Shown piece after piece: positions 459 through 64,000 of a stretch of DNA of 64,000 nt (within the stretch, counting starts at the first letter, position 1; each line of letters begins with the position of its first letter). Origin of the DNA: an uncultured Acidobacteriota bacterium (GTDB lineage: Bacteria; Acidobacteriota; Terriglobia; Terriglobales; Acidobacteriaceae); NCBI GenBank assembly GCA_963745435.1, contig CAVUXK010000026.1:111739-175738 (forward strand). The letters are read 5' to 3'. The position numbers and the translations under genes are program-made. The notes beneath the pieces are model-generated. The model was not told where the DNA came from. It searched no databases and saw nothing but the letters and a program-made list of their open reading frames with translations.

Positions 459-470
459 GTTGGGTTCTCC

Positions 471-1307: not shown

Positions 1308-2140
1308 CTCTTCTCCAACCGCTCAGACAGGAAGAGAAGAGCCACTACCAGGACGAGCATACAGAACGAAATCGCCGCCCCAAGCGGCCAGTTGTATGCC
1401 GCGCCGAACAGGCTCACCACGATATTCGAAATCATGATGCCGCTAGGTCCGCCCAGCAACAGCGGAGCCAGAAAATCTCCGAGGCTCAGTACAAAGGCGA
1501 AAGTCGCACCCGCCAAAACGCCCGGAATCGACAGCGGCAAAATTACTCGCCAGAACGTCTGTATGGGAGTCGCCCCGAGATCGTGTGAGGCTTCGACCAG
1601 GTTGCGCGGGATGTGTTCGAGGGAAGCGTAAATCGGCAAAAGGGTGAAAGGCGTGTAGATGTGAGTAAGCGTCAACACAACGGCGAACGGACTGTACAGC
1701 AGAAAGTCCAGCGGGTGCGACGTGAGGTGGGCATACTGCAAAAGCGTATTCAGCACACCGTCACTGCCAAGAATCGTTTTCCACGCGTAAGCCCGTACGA
1801 GATAGCTCACCCACAAAGGAATGATGACCAGTTGGTACAAGAGATCCTTGCGTGCGCCGGCGCGAAATGACAAGAAGTAGGCAAGTGGATATCCCAGGAG
1901 CAGAGAAAACAGCGTTACCCGCGCCGCGATCCACATGGAGCGCACGAGCGTTTGCCAGTAAACATCCACTCGGAGCAGTTGCTGGTAATTCTCCAAACTC
2001 CAGGAGTGAACGATGGTCTGCGATGAAGACAATGACCAGAAGCTGTAACAGAACATCAGCAGGTAGGGCACAAGCAGAAACAAGCTGACCCACAAAAGCG
2101 GAGGCACGGTGATCACCGTTCTGTAGGCTCGCGAGAACAT
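1292..2140 (-). CDS. ABC transporter permease, spermidine/putrescine PotB-like
   Basis: ORF 1292..2140 (282 aa), multi-TM, with EAA loop VEASHDLGATPIQTFWRVILPLSIPG. Tightly packed between the ATPase and the second permease. Confidence 0.85.
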   Translation of the reverse strand: MFSRAYRTVITVPPLLWVSLFLLVPYLLMFCYSFWSLSSSQTIVHSWSLENYQQLLRVDVYWQTLVRSMWIAARVTLFSLLLGYPLAYFLSFRAGARKDLLYQLVIIPLWVSYLVRAYAWKTILGSDGVLNTLLQYAHLTSHPLDFLLYSPFAVVLTLTHIYTPFTLLPIYASLEHIPRNLVEASHDLGATPIQTFWRVILPLSIPGVLAGATFAFVLSLGDFLAPLLLGGPSGIMISNIVVSLFGAAYNWPLGAAISFCMLVLVVALLFLSERLEKRWSFS

Positions 2141-2142
2141 GG

Positions 2143-3238
2143 TCAGGATATCTCCGCCGATTCGCGGACCGGCACTGCGTCCGCCGGATCAAACTCGAAT
2201 TCCAGTTGGCCCTGCCAGTCGGGTCGCGCCGCAGCTCGCACCGAAAACGTCAGCCCGTCCGCGCATTCGATTTGCAACAACTCCGTCGAGCCGTGAAAAG
2301 CTCGATGTCTCAACTGCCCTCGGAACCGCACTGTGTCCCGCGAGCCCGATGGTCCGGCGACGCGAATGTTTTCGGGACGCAACGACAGTAGCGCGGGGCC
2401 ATCGGAAAGCGGCGCCGCCCACGAAAGGGAATTGCAGCGAACGACTCCCCCCTGCACTGTCGTTCGCAGAAGATTTGTGTGCCCGATGAACTGAGCCGTG
2501 TAAGCGGTTGCCGGCCGGCTGTAGATTTCGCGCGGGCTCGCTACTTGTTCCAGTTCTCCCATGCGCAACAGCGCGATCCGGTCCGACATGACCATCGCCT
2601 CTTCCTGGTCATGCGTCACGAAGACGAACGCGATACCAACTTCTCGCTGCAGGGATTTCAACTCCACCTGCATCTGGCGGCGCAGGTTCGCGTCCAACGC
2701 CGAGAGCGGTTCGTCCAGCAGCAATAGCTGAGGACGCTTTACCGAGCGCCCTGGCCAGGGCGACGCGCTGTTGCTGACCACCGCTGATTTTCGACGGCTT
2801 GGCTTTCGCATGGACAGTCATCTTCACTCGAGCGAGTGCCTGTTCCACGCGCGCCGAAATTTCCGCCCCAGTCTGTTTCTCCACGCGCAGCCCGTAGCCG
2901 ACGTTCTCCTCGACCGTGAGGTGAGGGAACAGGGCATAGTGCTGAAAGACCGTGTTGACGCGTCTCTTATAAGGAGGCAGCACGTCCAGGCGCTCGCCCT
3001 TCATCCAGACTTCGCCCGACGTCGCGCCCTCAAATCCCGCGACGATGCGCAGCAGCGTCGTCTTGCCGGAGCCGCTTTCTCCGAGAATCGTAAGGAACTC
3101 GCCTTCGGCGACTTTGAGAGAAATGTCGCGGAGCACCACGCTTTTTCCGAAGGTCTTTGCAACTTTGCGAATCTCGAGAAGCGTCGCCGAGGCGATTGTT
3201 CCCGAAGCCGTGCTCTCGGACTGTTCGGTGGTCAGCAT
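2143..3238 (-). pseudogene. ABC transporter ATP-binding protein, PotA-like; frame broken by one indel near 2742
   Basis: ORF 2609..3238 carries Walker A GESGSGKTT and the signature ISGGQQQRVALARAL. ORF 2143..2811, in another frame, carries Walker B LLLLDEPLSALD, H-loop VTHDQ and a PotA-type C-terminal domain (AQFIGHTN). Deleting one C of CC at 2742-2743 gives the continuous read ALARALVKRPQLLLLDEP. Confidence 0.9.
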
Positions 3239-3305
3239 GATTCCGTGTTGCGCTACTTCTCAAGCGCGAGCCGGGTCGTGCGATGCAACTGCCCCTCGTG
3301 ATCGG

Positions 3306-4367
3306 CTATTGCGCCGCTTTCACTTCGTTCCATATCTCGTTGTACTTCGGACGCCGAGGTACGTCTTGCCAGAAGTAGATCCGCTTCTGATAGCTGTCGA
3401 CATCATCGAGATGCAAGCCCTGTCTTTGCTCGGCGGTCATGAGTGGTCCAGCTTGCGGGTTTGCAGGAACGTAATTCGTGACGTCGGCGACCAGTTTCTG
3501 CGTTTTCGCCTGGACCATGTACTCGAGAAACCGGTACGCGAGTTCTTTATTGTCGCTGGCAGCCGTGATCATCAGGTGATCGATCCAACCGGTGGTATTT
3601 TCCTTGGGAATTGTTTCTCCCACCGGAAAGTTCTTCTTCTTCAGTTCCACGGTATTCAGCGGCCAGCCCATCGCCACGACCACTTCGTGATTTTGAAAAA
3701 GGTTCGTGAGTTCGCCCCCGCTCGTCCACATTTTGCGAACGTTCGGTTTCAGTTCCAGCAGCTTTTTCTTGACCGCCTCGAGTTGAGTATCGCTCAGGTT
3801 GTACAGCTGGTTTGGATCAGGTCTGTCGTAGCCGAGAAGTTGTGCGGCCATGAAGACGGTCGAAAGATCATCCCAAACTGAAATCTTGCCGCGATACTTC
3901 GGATCCCACAGCACACTCCAGCTGTCGGGCGGTTGCGCAAAAGCCGTCGTGTCGTAGATCAGCGGATTGGGACCCCAGGTAAAGGGAACGCCGTAGACGT
4001 TGTCCTTCACACGAACGAGCGACATGGAAGTCAGCTTTGAAGAGAGCTGGCTGTAGGTCGGAATACGCGACAGATCGAGCGGCGCGGCAAGGCCGGCCGA
4101 TGCGATCATGGTCGCGACATCGCTCGACGGAGAGATCACGTCATAATTGCTGGCGCTGCCGCCTCGCAGCTTGGCAACCAGTTCGTCGCTCGATCCCATG
4201 TAAGACGCGGAGACCTTGCACTGGCACTGCTCTTCGAAGCCTTTCACGAAGAGCGGATCGGCGTAGCCTTCCCACACCAACAGATTCAGCGTCGGGTTTT
4301 TCTTTGCACAGGATCCGAGAGCGAGTGTTGCGACCAGTAGAGCAATGACTGCAGATAGCCTGCGCAT
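3306..4367 (-). CDS. Periplasmic polyamine-binding lipoprotein, PotD/PotF family
   Basis: ORF 3306..4496. The likely start is the internal Met at 4367, giving MRRLSAVIALLVATLALGSC (lipobox). The body resembles PotD/F (LNLLVWEGYADP..YDVISPSSD..). Codons upstream of 4367 overlap the amidohydrolase tail. Confidence 0.8.
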   Translation of the reverse strand: MRRLSAVIALLVATLALGSCAKKNPTLNLLVWEGYADPLFVKGFEEQCQCKVSASYMGSSDELVAKLRGGSASNYDVISPSSDVATMIASAGLAAPLDLSRIPTYSQLSSKLTSMSLVRVKDNVYGVPFTWGPNPLIYDTTAFAQPPDSWSVLWDPKYRGKISVWDDLSTVFMAAQLLGYDRPDPNQLYNLSDTQLEAVKKKLLELKPNVRKMWTSGGELTNLFQNHEVVVAMGWPLNTVELKKKNFPVGETIPKENTTGWIDHLMITAASDNKELAYRFLEYMVQAKTQKLVADVTNYVPANPQAGPLMTAEQRQGLHLDDVDSYQKRIYFWQDVPRRPKYNEIWNEVKAAQ

Positions 4368-46467: not shown

Positions 46468-46777
46468 AAATCCCGCATCGCCAGGGCGCCAGCCCCTTTC
46501 AGGGGCGAAATAGGATAGCCCAGCGCGTAAGCGCTGGGTAAGCACCAGACACAGAACGAGTCCCGCAGGGACGGCACTCGGCGCAGCGGGCGTGAGCCCG
46601 CCAGCTCATCGAGCAGGTACGGAAAAGCAAAAGGCAAGACCTCGTCTGGACAACTCCCAGCCCCGCTCTAACCCTCTTAAACGCTTTCGAGGATGGATTC
46701 GTGCCCATGCGGGCAACCTCCTCCACCGGCCCTGCCACTAAACCCCACAGAGGCAAACGCGACCAAAAGCACTGCCG

Positions 46778-48938: not shown

Positions 48939-49439
48939 TTACCGTCCGGCTGAAGCCGCCATGTCCGCATGCCGCTTCCGGTTGTAGCGCAGCGCGATGT
49001 TCATGAACACGCTGCCCACCGGCGTCTCGAAGCACATCACCAGCGCCTCGGTATCTTCGCTGCTCTTGATGCCTTCCGCGGATTCGTGCATCACCGGCGG
49101 ATGCACCCGGAAGTGGAATCCCTGGTCGTTCAGTGCCGTGATCGCATTGCCGATGATCTGGTTTGCCAGTTCGCAGGCGGTCTCTTTCACAAGCAAATCG
49201 GATTCGGGCAAATCCGCCCCCGCCATCTTGCCCGCCACGCGCACCGCGGTCTCCGGATCGAGGTCAATGATGATGCGTCCCTCGATATCGCCGGTGACCC
49301 AGACCATGGCCGCCACACCCTTGCGGCGATAGGCTTCCTCTTCCATGCTGAGGCTGCCAATGGCCGTGGTGCATTGCAGGCCCTGCGCCAGCACCGCGTC
49401 CGCCGAATTGATGAACGGCTGGATCAACTCCATCTTCAT
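48939..49439 (-). CDS. CheX/CheC-family CheY-P phosphatase
   Basis: 166 aa. E-x2-N-x22-P signature in ETACELANQIIGNAITALNDQGFHFRVHPP. Last gene of the che operon. Confidence 0.7.
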   Translation of the reverse strand: MKMELIQPFINSADAVLAQGLQCTTAIGSLSMEEEAYRRKGVAAMVWVTGDIEGRIIIDLDPETAVRVAGKMAGADLPESDLLVKETACELANQIIGNAITALNDQGFHFRVHPPVMHESAEGIKSSEDTEALVMCFETPVGSVFMNIALRYNRKRHADMAASAGR

Positions 49440-49443
49440 CGAG

Positions 49444-49885
49444 TTAGGCTCCCGCGCCGGCTGCGTTCGCGACCGCGCCGTCTTCGCCCAGCACGTACTT
49501 GATCACTTCGTAGAGCACTTCCGGCTTCACCGGCTTCTGCACGAAGTGCCGCGCACCTCGCTGCAGAGCGGCCACGATGTTTTCCTGGTAGCCGACCGAC
49601 GACACCATCACGATGCGCGCTTCCGGATGCGACTGCACGATCCGTTCCGCCGCCTCGATCCCTTCCATCTGCGGCATGGTGATATCCATGAGCACGATGT
49701 CGGGATGGGTCCGGTCATATTCGGTGATGGCGGTCAGGCCATCGCCCGCCTCGCCGGCCAGAGTGCCCACCAAAGGACTCGACCATGCGGGCCAGGTTCT
49801 TGCGCGCAAAGACCGAGTCGTCCACGATCAGATAGCGGACCGGCTGCCCGTCCTTGCTGCGTTTTACTGGCGCAAACTGCTCCAT
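49444..49885 (-). pseudogene. cheY: Chemotaxis response regulator CheY; one indel at ~49775
   Basis: ATG at 49885 gives MEQFAPVKRSKDGQPVRYLIVDDSVFARKNLARMVESFGG, then the frame slips. ORF 49444..49809 continues TLAGEAGDGLTAITEYDRTHPDIVLMDITMPQMEG..MVSS..FVQKPV. Confidence 0.85.
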
Positions 49886-49901
49886 AACAACCTCCTGTTG
49901 C

Positions 49902-51061
49902 TTACCTTCGTACCATGCGGCGCTTCCGCCGGCTAGATAACCCTAGTTTTGCCCGGCGCCCGCGGCTTTCCGCTGCGCCGTTCCCTGACTGTCCGTCTCC
50001 CCGCCCGGTCTCGGCGCACAGGGCCATCAAAGTGCTTGCCATGGCCTCCAAATCCACGACCCGCGAGGCGTAACCCCGGTCGATCGCAGCCTTGGGCATG
50101 CCATACACCACGCAGGACTCTTCGCTCTGCGCGATGGTCATGCCGCCCGGCGGCCTTGACCGTGCCCAAACCTTCGGCGCCGTCGTCGCCCATGCCGGTC
50201 ATGATGACGCGCGACCGTCTGCGGGCCGAATTCTTCGGCGGCACTGCGGAACAAGCACATCCGCCGAGGGACGATGTCCGCGAATTCGCGGATCGTCGTT
50301 CAGCACGGCCACGTTGCCCAGAGGCAGTTTCTTGACCTTCAAGTGCCGGCTGCCCGGACAGATCAGAACCCGGCCCGGCATCAGCAGGTCGCCCGACTGC
50401 GCTTCCTTCACGCGCAGTGCGCAGGTCTCATCGAGCCGGCGCGCGAACATCTCCGTGAAGTTTTCCGGCATGTGCTGCACCACCACGATGGTGCCCGGAA
50501 AATCCGCCGGCAGCTGCGAGAACACGTATTGCAGCGCGTTGCGGACCGCCGGTCGAAACGCCGATCGCCACAATCTTGGTAGGCGCCTTGGTCGAAGCCA
50601 TCGGGCGCCTTGCCGTATTGCATGGTGCTGGCCAGCGGTTTCATCGTGACGCTCTTGCTGCTGGCCGCCGCCTTGATCTTCGAAATCAGCTCGGCTGCAA
50701 TCTCCGGCATGCGCGTCGAAACATCCTGCGGCTTGGCCACGAAGTCGAACGCGCCAAAGCCCAGCGCCTTCAGCGTGATCGATGCGCCTTCCGTGCTGTG
50801 CGAACTGACCACGATCACCGGCACCGGATACAACTTGCGCATGACCTGCCTCAGCATGTCGATGCCGTTCATGCCCGGCATCTCCAGATCGAGCGTGACC
50901 ACCTGCGGCTTCAGTTCTTCGATCTTCTTCAGGCCGAAGTTGCCGTCCATCGCCGTGCCCACCACCTCGATCGAGCTGTCCTTCTCGAGGATCTGCGGAA
51001 TCAGCTTGCGCATGAGCGCCGAATCATCGACCACCAGTACGCGTACCCGAGGCGCGCTCAT
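49902..51061 (-). pseudogene. cheB: Protein-glutamate methylesterase CheB; at least 3 indels
   Basis: Receiver domain in ORF 50408..51163 from Met at 51061 (RVLVVDDSALMRKLI..VTLDLEMPGMNG). The esterase domain is split over ORFs 50199..50573 (GTIVVVQHMPENFTEMFARRLDE), 49933..50244 and 49902..50141 (ESCVVYGMPKAAI). Confidence 0.85.
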
Positions 51062-53240
51062 GCCTGTCCTCCCGCGCGCCTGGCTGAAACGCGGCTCGGT
51101 CGGCGTGCGAAAGCAACAAGCCGGAACTGACCGCTCCGGCTTCGGCCGGCTGCGAGCGCGCAAAATGATCCACCACTGCCGATAAGTTCAGAATCAGTAC
51201 CACCCGTCCATCACCCAGGATCGAAGCCCCGCTTACCAGATCGGTTGAGACCGCATGGTCGTCCAACGCCTTGATGACCAACTCTTCCTCACCTTCCAGC
51301 CCATCCACGATGAGCCCGAACTTCCTCTCCCCCACGCTGATGACCAGCACAAAAAGCTTGGTCGTTCGCCCAGTCCGGCCCGCTCGCCCGCGGCCGTCCC
51401 AGCCGCACCAGCGGCAGAACCTGGTTGCGCAGCTGCAGCACTTCGTAGTGGTCGACCTGGTGGACTTCGCCTTCGCGCGTGCGCGCAATTTCGACCACCG
51501 CGTTCAGCGGGATCGCGTACAGCCGGTGCTGCACCTGGAACAGCAGCGCCTTGATGATGGCCAGCGTCAGCGGCAGTTTCAGCCGGAAGGTCGTGCCCTG
51601 TCCGGGATGCGTCTCGATGTGAACGCGTGCCCTTCAGCCGGTGCAGAACGCTCTGCACAACGTCCATGCCCACGCCGCGCCCGGAGACTTCCGTGACTTC
51701 CTCCGCCGTGCTGAATCCGGGACGAAAGATGAAATCGAAAATCTCGGCTTCGTTCAGCCGGGCCGCGTCCTCTTTCGAGTTACAGACCCATGTCGATGGC
51801 TTTCGCCCGGATGCGCTGCGCGTCCATGCCGCGCCCGTCGTCGCTGCACTTCCACAATCACCTGGTTGCCCTGGTGATACGCGCTGAGGCGCAGCGTGCC
51901 TTGCGCAGACTTGCCGGCCTTCTTCCGCTCTTCGGCCGTTTCCAGCCCGTGGCCGATAGCGTTGCGCACCAGGTGGGTCAACGGTTCGGCGATCGCGTCC
52001 AGAATGCTACTTGTCCAGGTCGGTGTCCTGTCCGCTAACCACCAGCTCGACATCTTTGCCGCACTGTCGCGCCACGTCGCGCACCATGCGCGGGAAGCGC
52101 CGGAACAGTTGTTCCACCGGCACCATGCGGATCTTCATCACCGAGCGTTGCAGATCGTTGAGAACGCGCGCCTGAAAAGCCATGGCGTCGGCGAATCGTC
52201 CGCGCAGCGCGTCTTTCGGATAGGTCTTCGCGAACTCGTTGAGCGCCTGCTGCAGCATCGATTTGCCGATGATCAGCTCGCCCACCAGGTTCAGCACGCT
52301 GTCGATACGCTCCGAATCCACCCGCAGGATGTTTTCCGCCAGCGTCGCGTGCGATTGTGGTCCGTGCTCGGCCGTGGCTTCGTGCATTTCGCCCGGTGCT
52401 TCCGGCTCGTGAAAGAGGGAAGTCTCCGGAGCAGCTGGTTCTTCGGTATCTACAGCTTTCGAAGTGCGTTTCGTCGTGCGCTTCCGCTGGTTGCGCCACT
52501 TCGCCCGGCAGCAGATCGGTCTTGACGCTGGCCACAATGGTCGGAATCTGGCACTTGGCCGACAACCTCCTCTGACGTCTTCGTCGTGGCCACCAGAAAT
52601 TCCACCTGCTTCGTCGCCGCCGGCGATCCTGCCTCCGGCCGCGCCGCCAGAACTTCGCCCAATGTCGCGAGCGCGTTCTGCACCAGCTGCCGCCCCGCAA
52701 TCGGCATGGCGCAGTGCGGATCGATCAGCGCCTGCACGTGGTACACGAAATTTCCCGCTTCCTGCGCTTTCTGCACCGCCAGCTTCTCGTACTCGGTCCA
52801 GCCCAGTGCCTTGGCGCGCTGACCGCCGCTTTCTTCTTCGCGCCGCGCTTGGTTCCTGGCTCTGCGGCGAGCTTCTTCACCATCTTGCGCAGTGGATCGC
52901 GGCAGGGCAGCTTGCCATGCTTGCGATACGCCGTCAGCATGGCAGCGAACAGGTCGGCCGCCGTGAAGGCCACTTCCGCCAAGGTCGCATGTGCGGCCGC
53001 CAACTCGAGCGCCAGCGCATCTTCGAGTTCGTGCGCGACTTCGCTCAGTTCGCGGTAACCGCAGGCTGCGGCATCGCCTTTCAGCGTGTGCACGATCCGC
53101 CGAAGGCTGCGCACAATCTCCGAATCGCCGGGATGCTTTTCGAGCTTCAGGGCTTCGTCGTTCAGCGCCTGCAGAAGTTCCTGCGCGCTCTCGAAGAAGA
53201 GTTCGCGGAGTTCGGCCATGCGCTCGTCAGGCTGGGTCAT
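51024..53240 (-). pseudogene. cheA: Chemotaxis histidine kinase CheA; about 8 frame changes
   Basis: HPt domain in ORF 52725..53240 (SLRRIVHTLKGDAAACG). P2-like segment in ORF 52450..52776. Dimerisation domain in ORF 52007..52537 (RVDSERIDSVLNLVGELIIGKS). HATPase domain in ORFs 51754..52053, 51233..51673 and 51289..51534 (PLTHLVRNAIGHG..SGRGVGMDVV). CheW-like P5 domain in ORF 51024..51488. Confidence 0.85.
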
Positions 53241-54151
53241 ACGACTTCACCTCGACCCGCTGGTAGGCGGTTCCGCTGTTGCGGTGAACCATCTGGAACT
53301 TCTCGGTCAGCCCGAGCAGGCTTTCGGCGTGTCCCACGAACAGGTAGCCGTCCGGATTCAGGCAGCGGTAGAACTTGTTGATCAGCCGCTTCTGCTCGGC
53401 CTCGTCGAAGTACATCATGACGTTGCGGCAGAAGATCACGTCGTTGCGCTGCGGCAGGTATTCCGTCTTCAGATTGTGGAAGTCGAAGTGAACCACTTCT
53501 CTTCAGCGCCTTCTTGACCGAATAGCGATCGCCCGTCTTGTCGAAATAGCGCAGCCGGTAGTTGTAGTCCACCGACGCCATCTGGTGTTCGTTGTAAGTG
53601 CCTTCCTGCCCGGCGCGCAGCACCGAGTAGCTGATGTCGCTGGCCAGGATTTCTACCTTCCACGGCGCGGGAATCAGCGGCTTTGGCGTAGGCGTTTCCA
53701 CCTGCATCGGATTGCGCATGTAGTAGTACGCCAGCGCATCGGCTACCTGCATCGCCATGGTGTAGGCTTCCTGCCCGGTCGAGCAGCCGGCGCTCCAGAA
53801 GCGCAGCGAGAAGTCGCGCCGCTCCTGCTTTTGCCGCAGCAGATCTTCCAGCACGTACTTATGGAACAGGTCCAGCTGCGCGCGGTTGCGGAAGAAGCTG
53901 GTTTCGTTGACCGTGAGATTTTCGAGCAACTGCGCCAGCTCGCCCCGTCCGGCGTCGCTGATCAGCAGCCGGTAGTAGCTGTAGAAGGAATCCACGCCGC
54001 ATTCCTTGAGACGCCGCAGCAGCCGGTCCTGCAGAAAATGCGTGCGGCGCTCGTCGAAGTGCATGCCGCACTCCTGGTACACGAGCGCCTGCAGAAGTTT
54101 CAGTTCCGCTTCGGTAAGAACGGGGGCCGGTGCCGCGCCTGAGGTGCCCAT
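53227..54151 (-). pseudogene. cheR: Chemotaxis protein methyltransferase CheR; one indel at ~53500
   Basis: ORF 53237..54151 (NETSFFRN..LRFWSAGCSTGQEAYTMAM). The C-terminal SAM-domain end lies in ORF 53227..53496 (VIFCRNVMMYFD..LNPDGYLFVGHAESL). Confidence 0.85.
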
Positions 54152-54172
54152 GGGATGTCGGTTCAGTTCTGC

Positions 54173-54700
54173 CTAACGGGCAGCCGCGCCGCGAACCTCC
54201 GCCTTGGGAGTGGCTGCTGCCTTGGCCTCGGCCGCAGCTTTCTGTGCCTTGGTGCTGCCGAACTCCAGAAGCTTGCTCGTGTCGAGCAGCATGATTAGTC
54301 GCCCCTTGTACTTGCCCAGACCGGTCACGCACCCCATTCCGCCCTCCTGCAAAACGGCCGGAGGCGGCTCAATGTCGGTGGCTGCGATCTTCAGAACTTC
54401 GGACGCTGAATCCACGATCAGCCCCGACAATCGTCCGTTGAACTCGACCACCAGGATCCGGTTTCTCCGGTTCGCGGCTGTTTCCTTCACGCCAAATCGC
54501 TTGCGCAGATCGATCACCGAGACGATCTTCCCGCGCAGGTTGATGACGCCTTCCATGTATTCCGGAGCGTCCGGCACCGCCGTGATTTCCGGCACGCGCA
54601 CGATCTCGTGCAGCGCCGTGATGGGCACGCCATAGGTCTCGTTGCCCACCTGGAAGCCGACGATCTGCAACTCGCGGTTGCTGTGCCGCTCTATGCTCAT
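54173..54700 (-). CDS. cheW: Chemotaxis coupling protein CheW
   Basis: Intact 175 aa: [60 protein letters not shown]. Confidence 0.9.
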
Positions 54701-54703
54701 GGC

Positions 54704-56693
54704 CTAGACCCCTGCGGTCGCTCGGCGCGCGATCTTGCCCGAACTCTTGTCGTTGCTGCGCGCGTGATCCACGTCTCCCGTCCGGCCTGCCACCCGCTCC
54801 AGTGCATCGAGCAGTTCGCGCGACATCTTCGACATCTGCTCCGCCGACGCCGCCAGTTCGGTCGAGCCCGACGTACGACTGCTGGATCAGTTCGCGCATG
54901 CGCTCCATGGCCTTCACCACGGCCTGAGCGCCGGAGGCCTGCTCTTCCACGGCCGAATTGATTTCGTGCGTGATCTCGTTCAGCCGCGTGGTTGCCCGCG
55001 CGATCTGCGAAGATCCGTGCGACTGTTCGTTGGTCGCCGCGCCGATCTCCTGCGCGAACTTGTAGACCTCGGTGACCACATTCGAGATCTTGCGCAACGC
55101 GCCGTTCAGTTCTCCGCCCAGTTCCAGCCCTTCGTTGACGATCGACGTGCTCTCGTCCATGTTCTCGACCGCTTTGCGGGCTTCCTTCTGAATGCTCTGG
55201 ATCAGTTCGGAAATTTCCTTGGTCGACTGCGCCGACTTCTCGGCCAGCTTGCGGACTTCATCCGCCACCACCGCAAAGCCCAGTCCGTGTTCACCGGCGC
55301 GCGCTGCTTCGATCGCCGCGTTCAATGCCAGCAGGTTGGTCTGCTCGGCCAGATCGTCGATGACCTCGATGATCTTGCCGATATCGTCTGCCCGCTGTCC
55401 GAGCGCATCGATGATCGAGCCCGACGACCGGATGGTGTTGTTGATCTTGTTCAGGCCTTCGGTGGCCTTGTCCATCGTGGTGATGCCGCTGTGGACTTCT
55501 TCGCGCGAACGGTTCGAAATGTCGAGCAGCACCTTGGCCGTGTCGGCCACGCGCTGGATCGATGCGACCATCTGGTCGATCGATGCCGACGTCTCGCTCA
55601 CGCTCGAAGCCTGCGTCTGCGTGCTCTTCACCATGTTCTGCACGTTGACGCTCATTTCGTGCATGGTGCTGGTGACTTCATCAATCGCCGACGATCCCTG
55701 CAGGCTGATCTTGGCCGATTCGTCGGAAGCTCCCGCCACCTGGCTCGAAGCGCTCGCTACCTGCGATGCCAGGTCGCGCACGCTGCGCACCAGCCCGCGC
55801 AGGCTTTCCACCATCTGCTGGAACGCGTGTCCCAGCGTGTCCTGCTTCGAGCGCGGCTCGACTTCCACCATCAGGTCGCCGTTGGCGATGGCTTCGGAAA
55901 CCGTGGCCATCTCTTTCAGGTAAGTGACCATGTTGGCGAAAGTTCTCGCCAGTTCACCAATCTCGTCTTGCCGCTGCGTGTCAATTTCAATGTTGTGGTC
56001 AAGGTCGCCCGTGTTACCGATTTTGTGCGCCACCGTCATCAGCTTGGAAAGCGGTTCGGTGATCGAACTCGCGGTCCGGTAAGCGATCCCTATGCCGATG
56101 CCAAGTGCAAGCAGCGTGCTCACGAGCGAAGCAATGAAGGTCCATTTCGCCGCAGTGTCGTCTGCTGCGTTCCGCTCATCGAGCATCTTCGTGTTCTCTT
56201 TGTCGGCGGTGTCCAGAAATTCCGTGGTGTTCTTCACCCATGCGGAAGCGTCCTTCTGCAGGTAGAAAATTTGAAGCTCTGCCACCGTCGCATTGCCGCT
56301 GTCCACGTCCTTGCGCTTGTCGACCAGCGGCTGGGAGAATTCCTTGGCCCAGTTTTGCTCGAGCTGTTGCACCTTTTCGAGCGCCGCCTTTTCCTGATCT
56401 GACGTTGCCAGTGTTTGGGTCTTTTCCAGCTTGTCGTTCAGCTGCCGGATGCCCTCATTCATCCGGTCTACTTCCCGCGTGTCGCCGCTCAGGAGATAGT
56501 TGCTCAGGTAGAGACGGTTTTGCATCATCTGGGACCGCACCGCTTCGGTTGCATCCTTAAGGTCCCGCGAGACCTTTGCCGCCGTCTTCGCGTCGTGCTC
56601 CCGGCTGATTGCTCTCCAGTTGACCCCGAACATGACCAGGACCATGAACAGAACGGCCCCAAAGTTCATGTAAAGTCTGTTGCGCAGCGTCAT
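54704..56693 (-). pseudogene. Methyl-accepting chemotaxis protein (helical periplasmic sensor, HAMP, MA domain); one indel at ~54890
   Basis: ORF 54369..56693 has TM1, a ~170-aa coiled sensor region, TM2, HAMP and the signalling hairpin [32 protein letters not shown]. After ..RMRELIQQS the correct frame continues to a TAG at 54704-06, 3 nt before the cheW ATG. Confidence 0.85.
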
Positions 56694-56762
56694 CGCTGTC
56701 CCTCCCTAGCGAACCTCGAACCAGCCTGCGTGCCCTTGGCCCGCAGACGCTTTCTCCCCGGC

Positions 56763-57125
56763 CTACTGCGTGGCAACGTTCGGATCGAACTTGAACTCCA
56801 CCACGCCTGTCGTCTCTTCCGAAGCGGCATCGAACCGCCACTTCTTCACCGCGTCCACCGCCGCATTCACCAGCAGCGGATGGCCGCCCACGACCTTCGT
56901 GCTCTTCACCGATCCGTTCGGCGCTACCACGACCTGAACCTTCACCACGCCCGAAATCGACATCCGCCGCGCCAGTTCCGGATATGTCGGAGACACCTTG
57001 GATTTCACCTTGCGCGAGATTTCTTCCTGCTGGGCCTGACCCGGCAGCGGGTACAAAAGACAAACGGCGGCGACGCCTGAAATTACGGCCCCCGCCAGCC
57101 AGCGTTGTAGTTGTTGTCGAGACAC
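56763..57125 (-). CDS. Small secreted/anchored TonB C-terminal-domain protein (120 aa)
   Basis: GTG start at 57125 with GGGAGGA 6 nt upstream. N-terminal hydrophobic segment, then a TonB_C pattern: PTYPELARRMSISGVVKVQVVVAPNGSV..VVGGHPLLVNAAVDAVKKWRF. Confidence 0.75.
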   Translation of the reverse strand: MSRQQLQRWLAGAVISGVAAVCLLYPLPGQAQQEEISRKVKSKVSPTYPELARRMSISGVVKVQVVVAPNGSVKSTKVVGGHPLLVNAAVDAVKKWRFDAASEETTGVVEFKFDPNVATQ

Positions 57126-57159
57126 AAGTCCTCCCGTGCAAAAATCCTACCCCGGGATG

Positions 57160-57176
57160 TGCAAAGCCCGTGCCAG
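57160..57176 (-). promoter_or_regulatory. Sigma-54 (-24/-12) promoter of the TonB_C-che operon
   Basis: The minus strand reads CTGGCACGGGCTTTGCA, matching TGGCACG-N4-TTGCW at every conserved position. The GC element lies ~36 nt upstream of the GTG start at 57125. Confidence 0.8.
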
Positions 57177-57476
57177 CTAAATCGTTGGGAACATTACTTT
57201 GGTGACCAGCATAAGTCGCTGTGCCAGAAGGGAATGTACCGTTGGTGACCCCTCACTGACTCACCCTGACAAATCAGAAACGTCTCATTTTTCTGCTCCA
57301 ACCCGCCCAGCTTTCTCAGGGTGAGACTCCGAGACACTACCCAAACGTGGGATTTCACAGGAAGACACCTGCGACCCTTATTCGCTTGACTCAAAATGAG
57401 ATTGCAGAGTACTTTCCCCTTATATTCAAATAACTTGTGAACATCCGGGAAAGGTCCAGGCGGTGTTTTTCTAACC

Positions 57477-60400
57477 ATGCGCGCGGGAGACACGACGCTC
57501 ATCCAGGGGCCAAACCCCAGGTCTGACGAGGCTTTTCAGAAGCTGCTCTTGCGCTTTTCCGCCGCCGCCGCGCAAGGCACCGACGTCGCTTCTCTCATCC
57601 GCCTCTTCTGCCGTGAGACGCGCGAGTTCTTCCAGGTCAGCGGTGTCTACTTCTGGCAATGCCTCTCGCCCGACGAAATGGTGGGTGCTGAAGCCGACGG
57701 CATCCGGGCCGAGAGCTTCCGCGGACTGCGCCTGAGGGCCTCGGAGAGTGCGGTCTCCGGAGAGGCCGTCCGCCGCCGCCGCACCATCTTCGTCAATTTT
57801 CTCGACTCCACCCGCTATCCGCGAGCCTTCGAATTTAACGCCCGCTCCATCATGGCCGCCCCCCTGGTCGTATCGAACGAAGTGCTTGGCGCGGTTGCCT
57901 TTATCCATGATTCCGATCCTGGCTACTTCAACGAAGATCTGGCCGCCAAGGCGACCATCGTTGCCGGGCAGCTCGGCAGCCTGCTCGAAGCCCGCCGCCT
58001 GACCGAGGCCTCCCGCGAGGACCACCGCCGTGCTGAAATCCTGGCCGAAGTCGCCCATGCCCTGCACGGCAATCCCGACGTCGCCGCCGTCATCGAAGCC
58101 TTAGCCGATCGCATCCGCGTCCTGCTGCGCGCCCGCCTGGTCTGCGTGTTCATGCGGCAGGATGGACCCTTTGAGTTGCGCGGCGTCGCCGCTGAGACTT
58201 CCCAATTGGCCAACTCGGCCCGCGCACGCCACGACCGCACCGCACTCCGTTTCGCCGCCGACGTCGCCGGCCGCGCCGTTTCCGCCGGAGAGCCGATCAC
58301 GGTATCGATCGACCCAGCCTCCCATTCTCTCGGCGACCTGGTGCCCTCCGGAATGCTCCTGGCCGCTCCCTTCCGCACTTCCCGCACGCAGGGCGCGATC
58401 CTCGTCTACCCGCGCGCCGACGGCATTTTCACCAACGATGAAAGATCGCTGGTCTCGGCCGTCGCCGGATTCGGAGCGGTTGCCGTCGCCAACGCCGAGC
58501 TCTATTCCACCGCCCGCAACCAGGCTCACGAACTTCACCAGCTTCTGGAGATCTCCACCGAACTTCGCTCCGTCGGCAACCTGGATCGCTTCCTGGAAGC
58601 CTTCGTCGTGCGCGCCGCCGACTTCCTGGGCTTCGGACGGTGCTTCATCGGCCTGCTCGAGGAAGGGAAGTTTCGCGTCCGCCTGGGCGCAGAAAAAGGT
58701 CAGGCTCGCCACGTCGATCTCACGTTTCCCGATGGCATTGCCACCAAGGCCCTGATCGCGAAAGAAGTTTTCTGGACCGACGATGCCAGCCAGCTTCCCG
58801 GCGCCAACGCTAAAGCCATCCTCGAAGTTCGCCATCAAGCAAATCCTGGCCGTGCCTCTGCTCGGCTCCGACGGTGAAGTCATGGGCATGTTTGGCGTGC
58901 TCGACCGGCTGGATCTGGCGGGGATCACTGAAGAAGATATTCGCCGTGCCCGCGCTCTCGCCGCGCAGGTATCAGTCGCGCTCGAAGTGATGCGAAACTT
59001 GCATTCCTCCGAGCAGCACCGAAAACACGCCGAGGCCTTGATGGGCCTGTCGTTCGAGCTCAGCAGTCTGGTGCACCTGCCCGATTTCAACCGCCGCTTC
59101 GTGTATCGTGCCGCCGAGCTTTCCGGCGCAAAGTCAGCAGCGCTCGCGCTCTTCGAAGACTCCGCCCTCGAGCTCCACCGTCCTCTATGACACCTCGCGG
59201 CCCGAGCCCTCCGACCGCAGTCTCGAACGTCGCCTCACCCATTCCCTCACCGAATCTCTTGCCCAGCACGCCGAACGCCTCTACTCGGGGCAAGCCGCCG
59301 ACCTGTTGGGCTCAGCGCTTTCCGCCGCCCTCGGCTGGAAAGATTGCACCATCCTTCGCCTCACCGGCGCCGGGGACGAAGTCGGTCGGCGTCCTGTGCC
59401 TTGCGGATCGAGGCAAGGCGCTGCCCCCAGCCGACGAGCAACTCCTGCACGCCATCGCCAGCCACGCCTCGGTTGCCCTCGAAAATGCGCGCCTGTTCAC
59501 GCGCATGGACAAAGCCAACCGCCACTGGATGGAGATTTTCGACGCCATCACCGACTACATCGTCGTGCATGACGGGGCCCAGCAAGTTCTGCGGGTGAAC
59601 CGCTCACTCGCGGAATTCATCGGCGTGCCGCCCAGCGAATTGATCGGCGTCAACATGCGCGCCCTTGTCTCCCTCGCCAGCGATGCGCCTGCGCCCGGTT
59701 GCCCCTTCTGCCGCAACGCCATGGACGGCCCCGACGAATACGTCCATCAGGTCCTCGAGCGCATGTACCTGGTCTCGACTTCGCGCATTCACGCCTCCGC
59801 CGGAGAAGGTCAGCACACTATTCATGTTCTGAAGGACATCACGGATCGCCGCGAAGCCGAGCGCCGTTACCGTGAACTCTTCGACAATATTCAGGAAGGC
59901 CTCTTCTTCGCCGTCCCCGACGGACACTTCATTGAAGTCAACGACGCACTGGTCCGCATGCTGGGCTACGCCGACCGCGAAGAACTCCTCAAAATCGATA
60001 TCCCGACCCAGCTCTACACTTCACCCGAACGCCTGCGGCACCTGAATCAGGTCATGCAGCAGCACGGCGTGCTGCGCAATCACGAGGAAGTTCTCCGCCG
60101 CAAAGACGGAGGCGCCATCCACGTCCTGATCAACGCCTTCGCCGTTCCCGACGCTCACGGACAGGTGCTCCAATACCGTGGCCTTATGCTCGACATCACC
60201 GGACTCAAGACTTACCAGTCTGAACTGCAGCGCGCCCGCGACTTCTCCGAGAAGATTCTGAACAACACCCAGAGCCTGATCCTGGTGGTCGACACGGCCG
60301 GGCTGATCAGCTACGCCAACCGCCGCTGGTACGAAGCCGGCTACGAGCACAGCCAACTCATTGGCCGTCCGCTCGCCGATCTCGTCTCGCCGCCCCGCCG

Positions 60401-61326
60401 TCCTGTGCTCGCCGATGCCCTCAATTCCACGCTCTCCGGCCACCCGGTCGATAACCTCGATCTGCAAGTCCTGCGCGGCGACGGCCGGGTCGGCCAGTTC
60501 TCCGTGAACCTCAGCCCCATGCGCGACGAGCAGGGCATCGTCACCAGCATCGTGGTCGTGATGACCGACATCACCGACTCCGCCATGCTGCAGTCGAAAC
60601 TCATTCACGCCGAAAAGATGGCCGCTGTCGGTCAACTCGTCTCCGGCGTCGCCCACGAAGTCAACAATCCGCTGACCGCCATCCTCGGCTTCGCCGACCT
60701 GCTCATCGAGAACGCGGAGACTGCCCGAGGCTGCCCGCAAAGACCTGCGCGTCATCCTGCAGGAAGCGCAACGCACCAAGCAGATCGTGCAGAACCTGCT
60801 CAGCTTCGCGCGCCAGATGCCACCGCAGCGCAAGCCCGTCCAGCTCAACGGAATTTTGCGCCGCACCATCCAGCTGCGCGCCTACGACTTCAACAGCCAC
60901 GGCGTCGAGATCGTCGAGCACCTCGATGAAAGCCTGCCCCAGGTGGTGGGAGATTCCCACCAGCTGCAGCAGGTTTTTCTTAACATCATGAACAACGCCT
61001 ACGACGCGGTGCGGGAGACTGGTCGCCCCGCGCGCATCGAAATCATGACCGCCAGCCTCGGCAACCATGTCGAGGTGTCGTTCCGCGACAACGGTCATGG
61101 CATCACTCACCCCGATCGCATCTTCGATCCATTCTTCACCACCAAAGAAGTGGGGAAGGGAACTGGCCTGGGCCTGAGCATCTGCTACGGCATCGTGCGC
61201 GAACATGGCGGCGAAATCCTGTGCCACAACAATTCTGGAACCCAGGGCGCGACGTTCATCGTTCGCTTGCCCGGCCTTTCTGAGTCGGCCTCCAAAGGTG
61301 TGGCCGCGGGAGTTCTACAACGATGA
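57477..61326 (+). pseudogene. Soluble multi-sensor histidine kinase (4 GAF + 3 PAS + HisKA + HATPase_c, ~1280 aa); 4 indels
   Basis: The frames join as 57477..~58825, ~58825..~59170, ~59170..~59385, ~59385..~60715 and ~60715..61326. H-box SGVAHEVNNPLTAILGFADLL, N-box NIMNNAYDA, G-boxes DNGHGI and GTGLGLSICYGIV. No TM segment seen. Confidence 0.85.
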
Positions 61327-61724
61327 GTCTGCCAGCAATGAAGCCTGAACCCTTGCCCATCCTTCTTATCGAAGACGAGCCGGCCGTCATGGCTTACGTC
61401 TCGGCCACGCTCGAGCGCAGCGGCTATCAGGTCGTCAGCGCAAAGTCGGGCGCGGAGGGCTTGCAAATGCTTGAGTCGGGAGAATTCCTCGGAGTCGTCT
61501 CCGACATGGTGACGCCCGGGGGCGTCAATGGTGCCGATGTGCACGCCTGGATCGCGACTCATCGGCCCGAACTAGCCTCGAGGCTCGTCTTCATCACCGG
61601 CGACATCGCCAACGAGCAAACCGTCGAAACGCTGCGCCGCACGGGCGCTCCCTGCGTGGAGAAGCCCTTTCGCGTCCAGCAATTTATCTCGGTCGTAGAA
61701 AAGACCATGGGGAAAGCGCTGTGA
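61323..61724 (+). CDS. Single-domain (CheY-like) response regulator
   Basis: 133 aa: ILLIEDEP..VVSDMVTPGG..FITGD..EKPF. Its start overlaps the kinase stop (ATGA). Confidence 0.85.
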   Translation: MSLPAMKPEPLPILLIEDEPAVMAYVSATLERSGYQVVSAKSGAEGLQMLESGEFLGVVSDMVTPGGVNGADVHAWIATHRPELASRLVFITGDIANEQTVETLRRTGAPCVEKPFRVQQFISVVEKTMGKAL

Positions 61725-63127
61725 GTGAAGACCTTCGGATCCGGTTGTTGATTGTCGATGACGAGCAAAGCATTCGCCGCTTGTGCGTCACCGTGGGAGA
61801 GGCCCTGGGATTTGTCTGTCTGGAGGCGGCCAGTGGCGAAACCGCTCTCGCCCTGCTCGAAGAGCAACCCGCCCACATGATCCTCACCGATATGGTCATG
61901 CCGCACATGTCGGGCCTGGAGTTTCTGGAGAAAGTGAAGAAGCTGTTGCCGCGCACGGAAATCGCCGTCATGACCGGCCACGGCTCGGTCGAAACCGCCG
62001 TCCAGGCCATGAAGCTCGGCGCCTACGACTACATCGCGAAGCCCTTCTCCCCGCTGGAAGAATTGCGCCTGTTCCTCCGCCGCATGGCCGAAAAAGTCCG
62101 TCTCGTCGAAGAAAACCAGTTCCTGCGCGATCGCATGGACACCGAGACCCAGCTGCACGGCATCGTCGGCTCCTCTGCGAAGATTCAGGACGTTCTGCGC
62201 ATGGTCTCGCGTCTGAAAGACACGCGCACACCCGTGCTCATCACCGGCGAGAGCGGCACTGGAAAAGAACTGGTCGCCCGCGCCATCCACTTCCGCGGGT
62301 CATTCGCGAACCGCCCCTTCGTCGCCGTCGATTGCGGCTCGCTGGTTCCCACGCTCATCGAAAGCGAACTCTTCGGCTACGAAAAAGGCGCCTTTACCGG
62401 AGCCCTGAAGGCGAGAACCGGCCTGTTCCAGTCCGCTGACGGCGGCACCATCTTCCTCGACGAAATCGGCGAACTCCCGCTCGAGATGCAAGCCAAGCTC
62501 CTGCGCGTCCTGCAGGAGAAAGAAGTCCGCCCCGTCGGCAGCAACCAGCGCACCCGCGTCGACGTGCGCGTCATCGCCGCCACCAATCGCGATCTCGAAC
62601 AGGAATATCGCGCCGGCACTTTCCGCAAAGACCTCTACTTCCGCTTGAACGTTGTCACCGTCCATGTTCCAGCGCTCCGCGAGCGCCGCTCCGACATCCC
62701 GATGCTCGCCCACTGGTTCCTCGAGCGTTGCGTCCCCGGACGCAGCGTCCAGGTCACCAACGCGGCCATGAAATCCCTGCTCCAATACGACTGGCCAGGC
62801 AATGTGCGCGAACTGGAAAATTGCGTCGAGCGCGCTGTCGCCCTCGGCAACCAGCAGACCCTCGACGTCGACGACCTGCCCCCGGCAATCGCCTCCACTT
62901 CTCAGCCGCAGGAACGCGACACCGGCGGCCCCGGCCCCGGCCTCTCCACCACCGACCTCGAAGACATCGAGCGCACCACCATCGAGCGCGTCTTCGAACA
63001 AGTAAAAGGAGACAAAGCGCTAGCCGGAAAAATGCTCGGCATCAGCCGCGCCACGCTCTATCGCAAACTAAAGCGCTACAACATCGGCGCCCGCCAGCAC
63101 GCCATCTCAAGCCAAGCCCTTCAGTAA
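61721..63127 (+). CDS. NtrC-family sigma-54-dependent response regulator (REC + AAA+ with GAFTGA + Fis HTH)
   Basis: Intact 468 aa. REC domain [19 protein letters not shown]+ domain [38 protein letters not shown] domain [15 protein letters not shown]. The GTG start overlaps the upstream stop (GTGA). Confidence 0.9.
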
Positions 63128-63142
63128 GAAGTGAACGAACTG

Positions 63143-63174
63143 AACGATGGAGCGACGGGCGTCCCCGCCCGTCG
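63143..63174. repeat. REP-like hairpin, family A
   Basis: aacgatggagCGACGGGCGtcccCGCCCGTCG, 16 nt after the NtrC-like stop. The core is identical to 18505..18534 apart from one loop base. Confidence 0.8.
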
Positions 63175-63612
63175 TGCGGACGGAATCCCTGCTTCCGGGG
63201 AAAAAATCCATCGATAACAGCGGTCCAATCTTAGAAAATTGTGAGACAGCAGTCTCATCCTGAGACAAGATCGCTGATCTGGACCTCCATCCCTTCATCG
63301 GCCCCCACTCCCTCAATCTTCTTTTCAGCCACTTACGTCCGAGTACTTCCGGTTTTTGCTTTGGTTTTCCCCGTGCATATACAGAGGCCGTAGCAAGCGG
63401 ACCCGATAGGCTCCCATAAGAACTCTTTCAAACCGGGAAGAGGGGAGCCCGTGACCGCCCTTCGAGGTTGACCTTGGGAAAACGAGCCCATGTCGTCGAT
63501 TCTTCCACGCTCTTTGTCGTGGTGGCGCGCCTGGCCCGATTCGCTGCATCACAGTCCTCCCCTTCGATTTCATTTGCACCCAACCTCCCCCAACTGACCG
63601 GACTTCAAAATC

Positions 63613-64000
63613 ATGACTGACCTCAGCCAACTCACTGCCGAGTGGAACGCCGCTCGCATCCTCTATCCGACTTACTCCGCGCTGGCGCGTGAGTTTGTCA
63701 TCGACCTCACTCCGTGCAACGACCTCGAAACCAGCGTCGACCAGCCGCCCCAGGAGTCTGTCGAGCAGGCCCGGCAGTGGCTGGATGATATGGATGAGCG
63801 CATCCAGATTCACCAGCTCCGCCAGTTCCTGCAGACTACGACGCTCGTCACCCCGCAACTGTTGCAGACCATGCTGCTGCACCACCTGCACAAAGACGAG
63901 AAGTCGCCTTCGGATCGCGACAAGATCGATTTCCTGATCGTCCAGCTGTTCTCCCTGGCTGCACCGTCGCGCCTGGAAGACAGCTCGGTCACGATCGCGT
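63613..64000 (+). CDS. Hypothetical protein, N-terminal 129 codons (runs off window)
   Basis: Open frame from ATG 63613: MTDLSQLTAEWNAARILYPTYSALAREFVIDL..DKIDFLIVQLFSLAAPSRLEDSS. The ORF track shows no stop in this frame before the window edge. No family recognised. Confidence 0.45.
   Translation, partial: MTDLSQLTAEWNAARILYPTYSALAREFVIDLTPCNDLETSVDQPPQESVEQARQWLDDMDERIQIHQLRQFLQTTTLVTPQLLQTMLLHHLHKDEKSPSDRDKIDFLIVQLFSLAAPSRLEDSSVTIA

Follow-up and report, generated by a model that had tools for sequence, protein, structure and literature searches.

How does an uncultured soil acidobacterium decide when to make a complete chemosensory pathway? The question is raised by the stretch of DNA analyzed here (64 kb in full, referred to as the window), in which a chemosensory operon is preceded by a sequence resembling a sigma-54 promoter. 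RNA polymerase carrying sigma-54 binds promoters of the -24/-12 type, and opening of such a promoter needs an activator. The Acidobacteria rank with the most abundant bacteria of soil, and to our knowledge the regulation of their behavior is almost entirely unexplored. The reading that best explains the locus as a whole, to which we give a probability of roughly 0.75, is that a functional sigma-54 promoter (P1) drives the chemosensory operon, with a neighboring NtrC-type activator, upstream palindromes, and a second sigma-54-type promoter (P2) belonging to the same arrangement.

The operon was described in the initial annotation as a series of eight genes running from TonB_C to CheX. Pfam assignments agree with this order (TonB_C, MCP, CheW, CheR, CheA, CheB, CheY, CheX), and five of the eight genes are frameshifted in the window. 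The genes are as follows:

56763 to 57125, minus strand: gene 1, secreted TonB_C-domain protein of 120 aa (Pfam TonB_C, E = 7e-18).
54701 to 56693 (3' end approximate), minus strand: gene 2, methyl-accepting chemotaxis protein with HAMP and MCPsignal domains, frameshifted near 54876.
54173 to 54700, minus strand: gene 3, CheW (Pfam CheW, E = 4e-40).
53239 to 54151, minus strand: gene 4, CheR, frameshifted near 53500.
51058 to 53240 (end approximate), minus strand: gene 5, CheA, in at least five frames here.
49933 to 51061, minus strand: gene 6, CheB, receiver plus methylesterase, with at least two frameshifts.
49444 to 49885, minus strand: gene 7, CheY, with one frameshift near 49761-49770.
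48939 to 49439, minus strand: gene 8, CheX-type CheY-P phosphatase (Pfam CheX, NCBIfam CheX).

In an intact relative, CheA comprises Hpt, dimerization, HATPase, and CheW-like domains. The TonB_C protein has 1,702 homologs, mostly from Terriglobales, and the named ones are assigned to Terriglobales or Acidobacteriaceae. Judging from the ORF layout, the operon ends with the CheX gene, and the gene that follows is convergent. The annotated ORFs of the 64-kb window include no flagellar genes; the remainder of the window encodes metabolic and housekeeping proteins. The frameshifts lie beyond what the initial annotation had described, as do the activator gene, the enhancer-like palindromes, and P2.

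Three elements define the start of the operon:

57160 to 57176, minus strand: P1, a sigma-54 -24/-12 promoter element, CTGGCACGGGCTTTGCA (direct reading, scans, and ortholog conservation).
57148 to 57150, minus strand: predicted P1 transcription start (from standard sigma-54 promoter geometry).
57123 to 57136, minus strand: Shine-Dalgarno sequence GGGAGGA (57136-57130) and GTG start codon (57125-57123) of the TonB_C gene (sequence and homologs).

The motif at 57176-57160 had been reported to have canonical spacing and every consensus base, and re-reading bears this out: GG (57174-57173) and GC (57162-57161) are separated by exactly 10 nt, the canonical distance, and all 12 specified positions of the extended consensus TGGCACG-N4-TTGCW are matched. 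P1 lies 34 nt from the GTG start codon in the same orientation (about 36 nt had been claimed), and this GTG start is conserved in homologs (VSR/MSR...). The predicted transcription start falls ~12 nt past the C of the -12 GC, which would give a leader of ~24 nt. On both strands of the 64 kb, the exact sequence TGGCACG-N4-TTGCW occurs once, at P1; 0.02 occurrences are expected from dinucleotide shuffles, with a match in 2 of 100 shuffled windows. Sites with up to two mismatches number 6 in the window against 12.6 expected, and because this looser class is not enriched, P1 is best regarded as a singular site and not as one member of a family. A position-weight scan and a comparison of orthologous loci had both been suggested by the initial annotation as checks on the motif. 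In the scan, for which the matrix was our own approximation of the published consensus, P1 attains the maximum score of the window (19.2), followed by a runner-up at 12.9. The initial annotation had also dismissed the other TGGCAC and GTGCCA occurrences for want of proper promoter spacing, and rightly so: TGGCAC occurs 31 times in the window, TTGC stands at the correct spacing in P1 only, and the 30 others all lack a proper -12 element, including those at 27380, 17767, and 16668, where the GC offset is right and the TTGC context is absent. The second TGGCAC near the operon start, at 57226, was rejected as a sigma-54 site, as its spacing is GG-N13-GC and conservation there is limited to ACA...ACTTAT. 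Apart from P1 and P2, no credible sigma-54 sites were found in the window.

For the comparison of orthologous loci, a set of 80 species-representative Terriglobales (Acidobacteriota) loci was used, each containing the TonB_C gene; MCP and CheW genes directly follow the TonB_C gene in every locus that extends far enough. A -24/-12 site with no more than three mismatches is present 20 to 60 nt before the start codon in 64 of the 80 loci. GG-N10-GC sites with at most one mismatch number 33 in the -130 to +3 region (9.4 kb) versus 8 elsewhere (2.9 Mb), an enrichment of ~1,300-fold relative to flanking DNA; when two mismatches are allowed, the counts are 58 and 137, respectively. In an alignment anchored on the site, information content peaks at TGGC...TTGCA and falls to near zero a few bases away. 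Two flavors of P1 can be distinguished, namely, TGGCAC or TGGCAT in the clade to which the window belongs and TGGCCC in a Sulfotelmatobacter-like clade. Within the window's clade, strong conservation close to the start codon is confined to the -24/-12 element, a box upstream of it, and the leader. Some members of an Acidobacteriaceae subclade have lost the GG or the GC (TGATGTGG..., ...GTACA); the che operon is therefore not under sigma-54 control everywhere. The same subclade with the eroded P1 has a conserved CGAATATAGG adjoining the site, just downstream, and its promoter type may have turned over.

Divergent from the che operon lies a second operon, which encodes the components expected of a two-component activation system:

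57477 to 61326, plus strand: sensor histidine kinase with GAF, PAS, HisKA, and HATPase domains, divergent from the che operon and in five frames here.
61323 to 61724, plus strand: single-domain response regulator of 133 aa (Pfam Response_reg), syntenic across loci.
61721 to 63127, plus strand: NtrC-type enhancer-binding protein of 468 aa with receiver, AAA+, and HTH_8 domains.

In short-read relatives, the kinase is encoded by a single ORF of 1,257 to 1,308 aa. Pfam detects Response_reg, Sigma54_activat (E = 2e-70), AAA_lid_14, and HTH_8 in the activator, and its sequence contains a Walker A motif (GESGTGKE) and the sigma-54-contact loop GAFTGA. It thus has the domain makeup of an NtrC-class two-component regulator: a receiver, an AAA+ domain with GAFTGA, and a C-terminal Fis-type HTH. 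The activator gene is located 4.5 kb from P1. The kinase-receiver-activator operon is divergent from and adjacent to the che operon in essentially all loci, with activator identities of 74 to 99%, and of the 76 loci that extend to the activator gene, 75 have an intact GAFTGA loop and 1 reads GSFTGA. When compared to the named NCBIfam equivalogs (NtrC, AtoC, ZraR, NtrX, PEP-CTERM regulator, FlgR, FlbD, and others), the activator scored below the curated cutoff in every case; its best match was AtoC, at 440 bits versus a cutoff of 714. No rpoN was seen among the annotated ORFs of the window, and we infer that sigma-54 is present in the host, the one basis for this being the conserved GAFTGA activator. 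Inspection of the conserved block by eye revealed no sigma-54 element for the kinase operon; the TTGCA on the plus strand is not accompanied by a correctly spaced GG.

The two operons are separated by a 351-nt intergenic region, which contains the following conserved elements upstream of P1:

57194 to 57203, minus strand: box ACCAAAGTAA, at ~-45 to -54, abutting the -24 element and near-invariant in the window's clade.
57282 to 57287, minus strand: half-site TGAGAC, at ~-135, a near-invariant alignment block.
57313 to 57327, no strand assigned: proximal palindrome GTCTCAcccTGAGAa, a candidate enhancer (UAS) centered at ~-171, with invariant half-sites.
57389 to 57401, no strand assigned: distal palindrome TCTCAtttTGAGT, centered at ~-246 from the predicted P1 start.

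Within the window's clade, the alignment shows a footprint in which the TCTCA-N3-TGAGA half-sites never change, whereas the bases between and around them do. The core CTCA-N3-TGAG is found in 79 of the 80 upstream regions, usually as a pair, the remaining locus having no upstream DNA, and its frequency in these regions is 142-fold above that in the flanks. Spacing is similarly regular: the proximal palindrome lies 147 to 150 nt from the -24 element in most loci, and 72 to 75 nt separate the proximal palindrome from the distal one. Among loci with a good -24/-12 element, two palindromes are kept in 48 and not kept in 10; among those with an eroded element, the numbers are 5 and 16. As statistics, this co-retention is weak because it reflects essentially one clade, whose members are not phylogenetically independent. 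Upstream activator sites of a sigma-54 promoter are sought within roughly 80 to 250 nt, and the palindrome (G)TCTCA-N3-TGAGA(C) is a probable enhancer. The box ACCAAAGTAA is found reversed (TTACTTTGGT) in another clade and as an inverted repeat in the Acidobacteriaceae subclade; it may be a DNA-bending site or a regulator site. An assignment as an IHF site was rejected, as the box shows two to three mismatches to the IHF consensus (WATCAANNNNTTR) by eye.

Perfect GTCTCA-N3-TGAGAC sites beyond the activator gene account for most "background" palindromes, and a second promoter-like arrangement is present there:

63242 to 63266, no strand assigned: third palindrome GTCTCAtccTGAGAC (63252-63266) with half-site TGAGAC (63242-63247), centered at ~-129 from the predicted P2 start (63388).
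63362 to 63377, plus strand: P2, the second sigma-54-type element, TGGTTTTCCCCGTGCA (GG at 63363-63364, GC at 63375-63376).
63397 to 63458, plus strand: conserved three-tier hairpin within the ~225-nt leader of gene Y.
63613 to 64000, plus strand: gene Y, ~360 aa, with its ATG at 63613, running off the window.

In the window, P2 is positioned 97 nt past the third palindrome and has the correct GG-N10-GC spacing; it is a weak match there, with five mismatches to the consensus outside GG and GC. Across loci, a TGG-N9-TGCW sequence follows the palindrome at 96 to 108 nt (mostly 97 to 98) in 24 of 29 cases, compared to 0.017 expected per site. The leader hairpin comprises 17 pairs, 4 of which show compensatory changes, and has no Rfam match; an Rfam search that took in the two promoter regions together with this leader gave only sub-threshold noise. 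The gene Y protein belongs to no Pfam or NCBIfam family. In relatives, gene Y is followed by genes for a HisKA-domain protein and a second CheR-type methyltransferase. A minus-strand frame at this position, orf63325 (63325-63891), was discarded as a neighboring gene: it is an antisense shadow of gene Y, with the wobble positions common to both.

Based on the observed sequence, statistical uniqueness, conservation, synteny, domain content, and spacing regularities, the following course of events is proposed. The cytoplasmic GAF/PAS multisensor kinase would phosphorylate the NtrC-type activator (61721-63127), which would then assemble on the palindromes at ~-171 and ~-246 and reach P1 through DNA looping, possibly aided by the box at ~-50. 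ATP hydrolysis by the activator would open P1, and transcription would start near 57149 and proceed through the TonB_C, MCP, CheW, CheR, CheA, CheB, CheY, and CheX genes. Through the third palindrome at ~-129, the activator would probably drive P2 as well, and with it gene Y and, in relatives, the HisKA protein and the second CheR. Within this scheme, the neighboring NtrC-type regulator is the most likely activator of P1, while binding of the activator to the palindromes, the position of the start site, and cotranscription of the eight genes are points that we infer from sequence.

Several other explanations were weighed against this scheme. One is that P1 is real and responds to a distant enhancer-binding protein, with the palindromes binding some other factor, such as a regulator of the kinase operon. 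The distal palindrome lends itself to such a role: it is the best-conserved block of the region, it survives in the subclade whose -24/-12 element has eroded, and it shares bases with a -35-like TTGACT on the plus strand, that of the kinase. With this overlap, it may mainly serve the kinase promoter, and autoregulation of the kinase operon is possible. We nonetheless consider a distant activator quite unlikely: the same palindrome stands at a fixed distance from two sigma-54-type promoters that flank the activator gene, the proximal palindrome tends to vanish along with the -24/-12 element, and virtually all loci have the activator gene in synteny. A related explanation concerns the degree of dependence on sigma-54. 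A promoter for the housekeeping sigma factor, situated either in the 351 nt between the two operons or within the che operon, could provide basal expression that P1 merely boosts. The subclade that has lost GG or GC and carries the conserved CGAATATAGG suggests that another type of promoter can serve the operon, a gap of 69 nt separates the TonB_C and MCP genes, and the consensus for housekeeping promoters in Acidobacteria is poorly defined, which leaves room for an additional promoter. Evidence to the contrary comes from the 48- to 58-kb region, in which no sigma-70-like promoters were found against 1.8 expected, from the restriction of conserved blocks near the start codon in the window's clade to the three named above, and from the remaining genes, which are tightly packed or overlapping in intact relatives. 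Basal expression of this kind is, in our estimation, unlikely. It also bears on the wording of the initial annotation, which had the pathway wholly dependent on an enhancer-binding protein. Conditional control of this kind is supported by the conservation of P1, the adjacent activator, the palindromes, and P2; "wholly" is an overstatement, given that one subclade has apparently replaced the element.

The broken reading frames suggest a different objection, namely, that the che operon is a decaying pseudogene array and its promoter a relic. Relative to the nearest relative, ~26 frame-breaking single-base insertions are present in 49761-54876 and 58823-60722, and the split genes are those for MCP, CheR, CheA, CheB, CheY, and the kinase. 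The pattern of differences speaks against decay: nearly all are one-base insertions, with very few deletions, and the proteins encoded between the breaks are 86 to 98% identical to those of distant relatives (97 to 98% for CheY, compared to locus L015), with no hint of relaxed selection. Bins from long-read soil metagenomes are the closest genomic relatives, and the nearest of them carries another set of indels, including in the activator gene; in relatives assembled from short reads, every che gene is intact. Moreover, 54877-58822 is free of frame-breaking indels relative to the nearest relative, and six independent short-read metagenome contigs, which span the promoter, the TonB_C gene, and the beginning (5' part) of the MCP gene, are 98 to 100% identical to the window, with no indel in coding sequence and an identical P1 motif. 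Because of the high identity between breaks and the different indels of the nearest relative, the single-base insertions are most likely consensus errors of long-read metagenome assembly, and we regard decay of the operon as very improbable. Lastly, ~2% of shuffled windows hold one exact match to the consensus, so that P1 could in principle be a functionless coincidence; the place and direction in which it lies, together with its conservation in ~60 species whose flanking sequences drift, effectively refute this idea, and its probability is close to nil.

A functional P1 under the control of the neighboring activator is a design with several precedents, and the view in the initial annotation that such wiring is unusual outside flagellar hierarchies went too far. 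In Desulfovibrio vulgaris, sigma-54 promoters precede two chemotaxis operons, and activator genes typically adjoin, and are often divergent from, sigma-54 targets (PMC4641369). In Myxococcus xanthus, the Che3 cluster is linked, physically as well as functionally, to the NtrC-like activator CrdA and the kinase CrdS (PMC3147164), and in Rhodobacter sphaeroides, a che operon is expressed via FleQ and sigma-54 (PMC7277832). The closest parallel in mechanism is NtrC-class two-component activation as exemplified by glnAp2/NtrBC, DctBD-dctA, and the divergent pairs of D. vulgaris. Shared features include the GG-N10-GC promoter, an activator of receiver-AAA+(GAFTGA)-HTH_8 architecture next to a histidine kinase, paired palindromic sites 100 to 250 nt upstream of the start, and the divergent or adjacent placement of the activator gene. 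The locus described here differs in that the target is a complete Che pathway instead of a metabolic operon, that the activator falls below all named NCBIfam equivalog cutoffs, and that GTCTCA-N3-TGAGAC was matched to no described activator.

The Che3 cluster (PMC3147164) resembles the present locus in linking chemosensory genes to an NtrC-like activator and a histidine kinase and in being headed by a gene for a small envelope protein (CrdB there, the TonB_C protein here). However, CrdB is an OmpA-domain lipoprotein and not a TonB_C protein, and Che3 has no CheY, its output being CrdA, whereas this operon includes both CheY and CheX. For that reason, classification as an "alternative cellular function" system of the Che3/CrdA type, which would be recognized by the absence of CheY and by an NtrC-like activator serving as pathway output, was rejected. 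The link between Che3 and CrdA is furthermore described at the level of phosphorylation and not of sigma-54 control of the che operon. The likeness lies in gene neighborhood and is an analogy. The fla1-linked che operon of R. sphaeroides, expressed via FleQ and sigma-54-2 (PMC7277832), likewise places a whole set of che genes (CheA, CheW, CheR, CheB, and CheY) under a sigma-54 promoter. It does so within a flagellar locus and hierarchy with a FleQ-type master regulator; here, by contrast, no flagellar genes are annotated in the 64 kb, and the activator, a phosphorylatable NtrC-type regulator, comes with a multisensor kinase of its own. A flagellar sigma-54 hierarchy of the FleQ/FlrA type was accordingly rejected, as the adjacent activator is NtrC-type with a standard receiver. 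A literature search on sigma-54 and chemotaxis in Acidobacteria returned nothing relevant, and no description of this acidobacterial locus was found.

A bolder reading can be formulated by analogy with Che3/CrdA, from which its feedback step is taken. The locus might be a self-contained, inducible chemosensory module found throughout the Terriglobales, comprising the kinase, an unnamed NtrC-class activator, a shared GTCTCA-N3-TGAGAC enhancer, and two sigma-54 operons, the first encoding a full Che pathway with a periplasmic TonB_C protein at its head and the second, preceded by a structured leader, encoding gene Y, a HisKA protein, and another CheR. In such a module, the receiver of the activator would take feedback from CheA or the additional HisKA protein, such that the Che pathway would control gene expression in addition to, or instead of, motility. 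We offer this as speculation and think it improbable.

In all, the locus is a well-conserved example of a known regulatory design and is mechanistically unsurprising; it puts to use a mechanism that is already well understood, and its value lies in the prediction of a regulon for an understudied phylum. What the analysis provides is a concrete predicted regulon, consisting of one kinase, one activator, an enhancer motif, two sigma-54 promoters, and a complete chemosensory pathway, whose components are conserved across dozens of Terriglobales species. If the prediction is true, the promoter and enhancer could supply parts for genetic tools in the phylum, and these bacteria would build their chemosensory apparatus only when an intracellular signal sensed through the GAF/PAS domains is present.

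Just beyond the gene for the NtrC-type activator, the window holds a second sigma-54-type promoter (P2), located 97 nt downstream of a third copy of the GTCTCA-N3-TGAGAC palindrome. This layout, palindrome followed by P2, is kept in 24 of 29 loci. P2 precedes gene Y, whose leader of ~225 nt carries a conserved hairpin.

63242-63377: P2 (TGGTTTTCCCCGTGCA) and the third palindrome
63397-63458, plus strand: conserved three-tier hairpin in the gene Y leader
63613-64000, plus strand: gene Y, encoding a conserved protein of ~360 aa (corresponding region in L011, a relative's locus: 423-3421, minus strand)

The hairpin tiers read GCGG...GGCTCCC...CTCTTTC-loop-GGGAAGAG...GGGAGCC...CCGC, with compensatory changes at four pairs; no matching Rfam family was found. 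The gene Y protein likewise gave no family in Pfam or NCBIfam. In relatives, gene Y is followed by a gene for a 235-aa HisKA-domain protein and one for a second CheR-type methyltransferase. A 188-aa ORF on the opposite strand (63325-63891, minus) was considered as a gene and rejected as an antisense shadow of gene Y: both appear conserved in tblastn because the two frames have wobble positions in common. Separately, a perfect 8-bp GC-rich hairpin without a T-run (CGACGGGC...GCCCGTCG; 63153-63174, plus strand) starts 26 nt past the activator stop codon and may serve as the end marker of the kinase-receiver-activator operon.

Two further conserved sequences flank P1, the sigma-54 promoter of the chemosensory operon.

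57194-57203, minus strand: conserved box ACCAAAGTAA, immediately next to the -24 element
57140-57153, minus strand: GGGGTAGGATTTTT, which covers the predicted transcription start and the first part of the leader

The box reads TTACTTTGGT in another clade, and a subclade of the Acidobacteriaceae has it as an inverted repeat, ACCAAAGTAATG-N12-AACTTTTGGTA; the IHF consensus matches the box poorly. GGGGTAGGATTTTT, nearly invariant within the window's clade, forms with the Shine-Dalgarno sequence a set of two GGA motifs ~14 nt apart, from which CsrA-like post-transcriptional control can only be speculated. Another TGGCAC, 50 nt upstream of the one in P1 (57211-57226, minus strand), was rejected as a second sigma-54 site: its spacing is GG-N13-GC, and relatives conserve only ACA-N4-ACTTAT there, not TGGCAC itself.

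Compared with the nearest relative, the window carries ~26 single-base insertions that break frame, all within 49761-54876 and 58823-60722; 54877-58822 contains no frame-breaking indels. The insertions lie outside homopolymers, deletions are almost absent, and the genes for MCP, CheR, CheA, CheB, CheY, and the sensor kinase are split into many frames. The insertions most probably arose as errors of the long-read assembly. Elsewhere, an Rfam Acido-Lenti-1 small RNA motif (46491-46538, minus strand; 51.8 bits versus a gathering score of 37) is intergenic, ahead of a gene that runs convergently to cheX and encodes a beta-propeller protein.

Among the relatives' loci, L046 (DATJNK010000016.1) is a 1.1-Mb contig labelled Verrucomicrobiia with a complete, syntenic locus of Terriglobales type; the record may be mislabelled or mis-binned. 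In an Acidobacteriaceae subclade (L027-L029, L036, L038, L040, L041, L048, L053, L066, L071, and L081), the -24/-12 element, in the region roughly -60 to -20 relative to the TonB_C start, has an eroded GG or GC, and the proximal palindrome has shrunk to a half-site. Just downstream of the eroded element, CGAATATAGG is conserved. In this subclade, the sigma-54 promoter may have been replaced during evolution.
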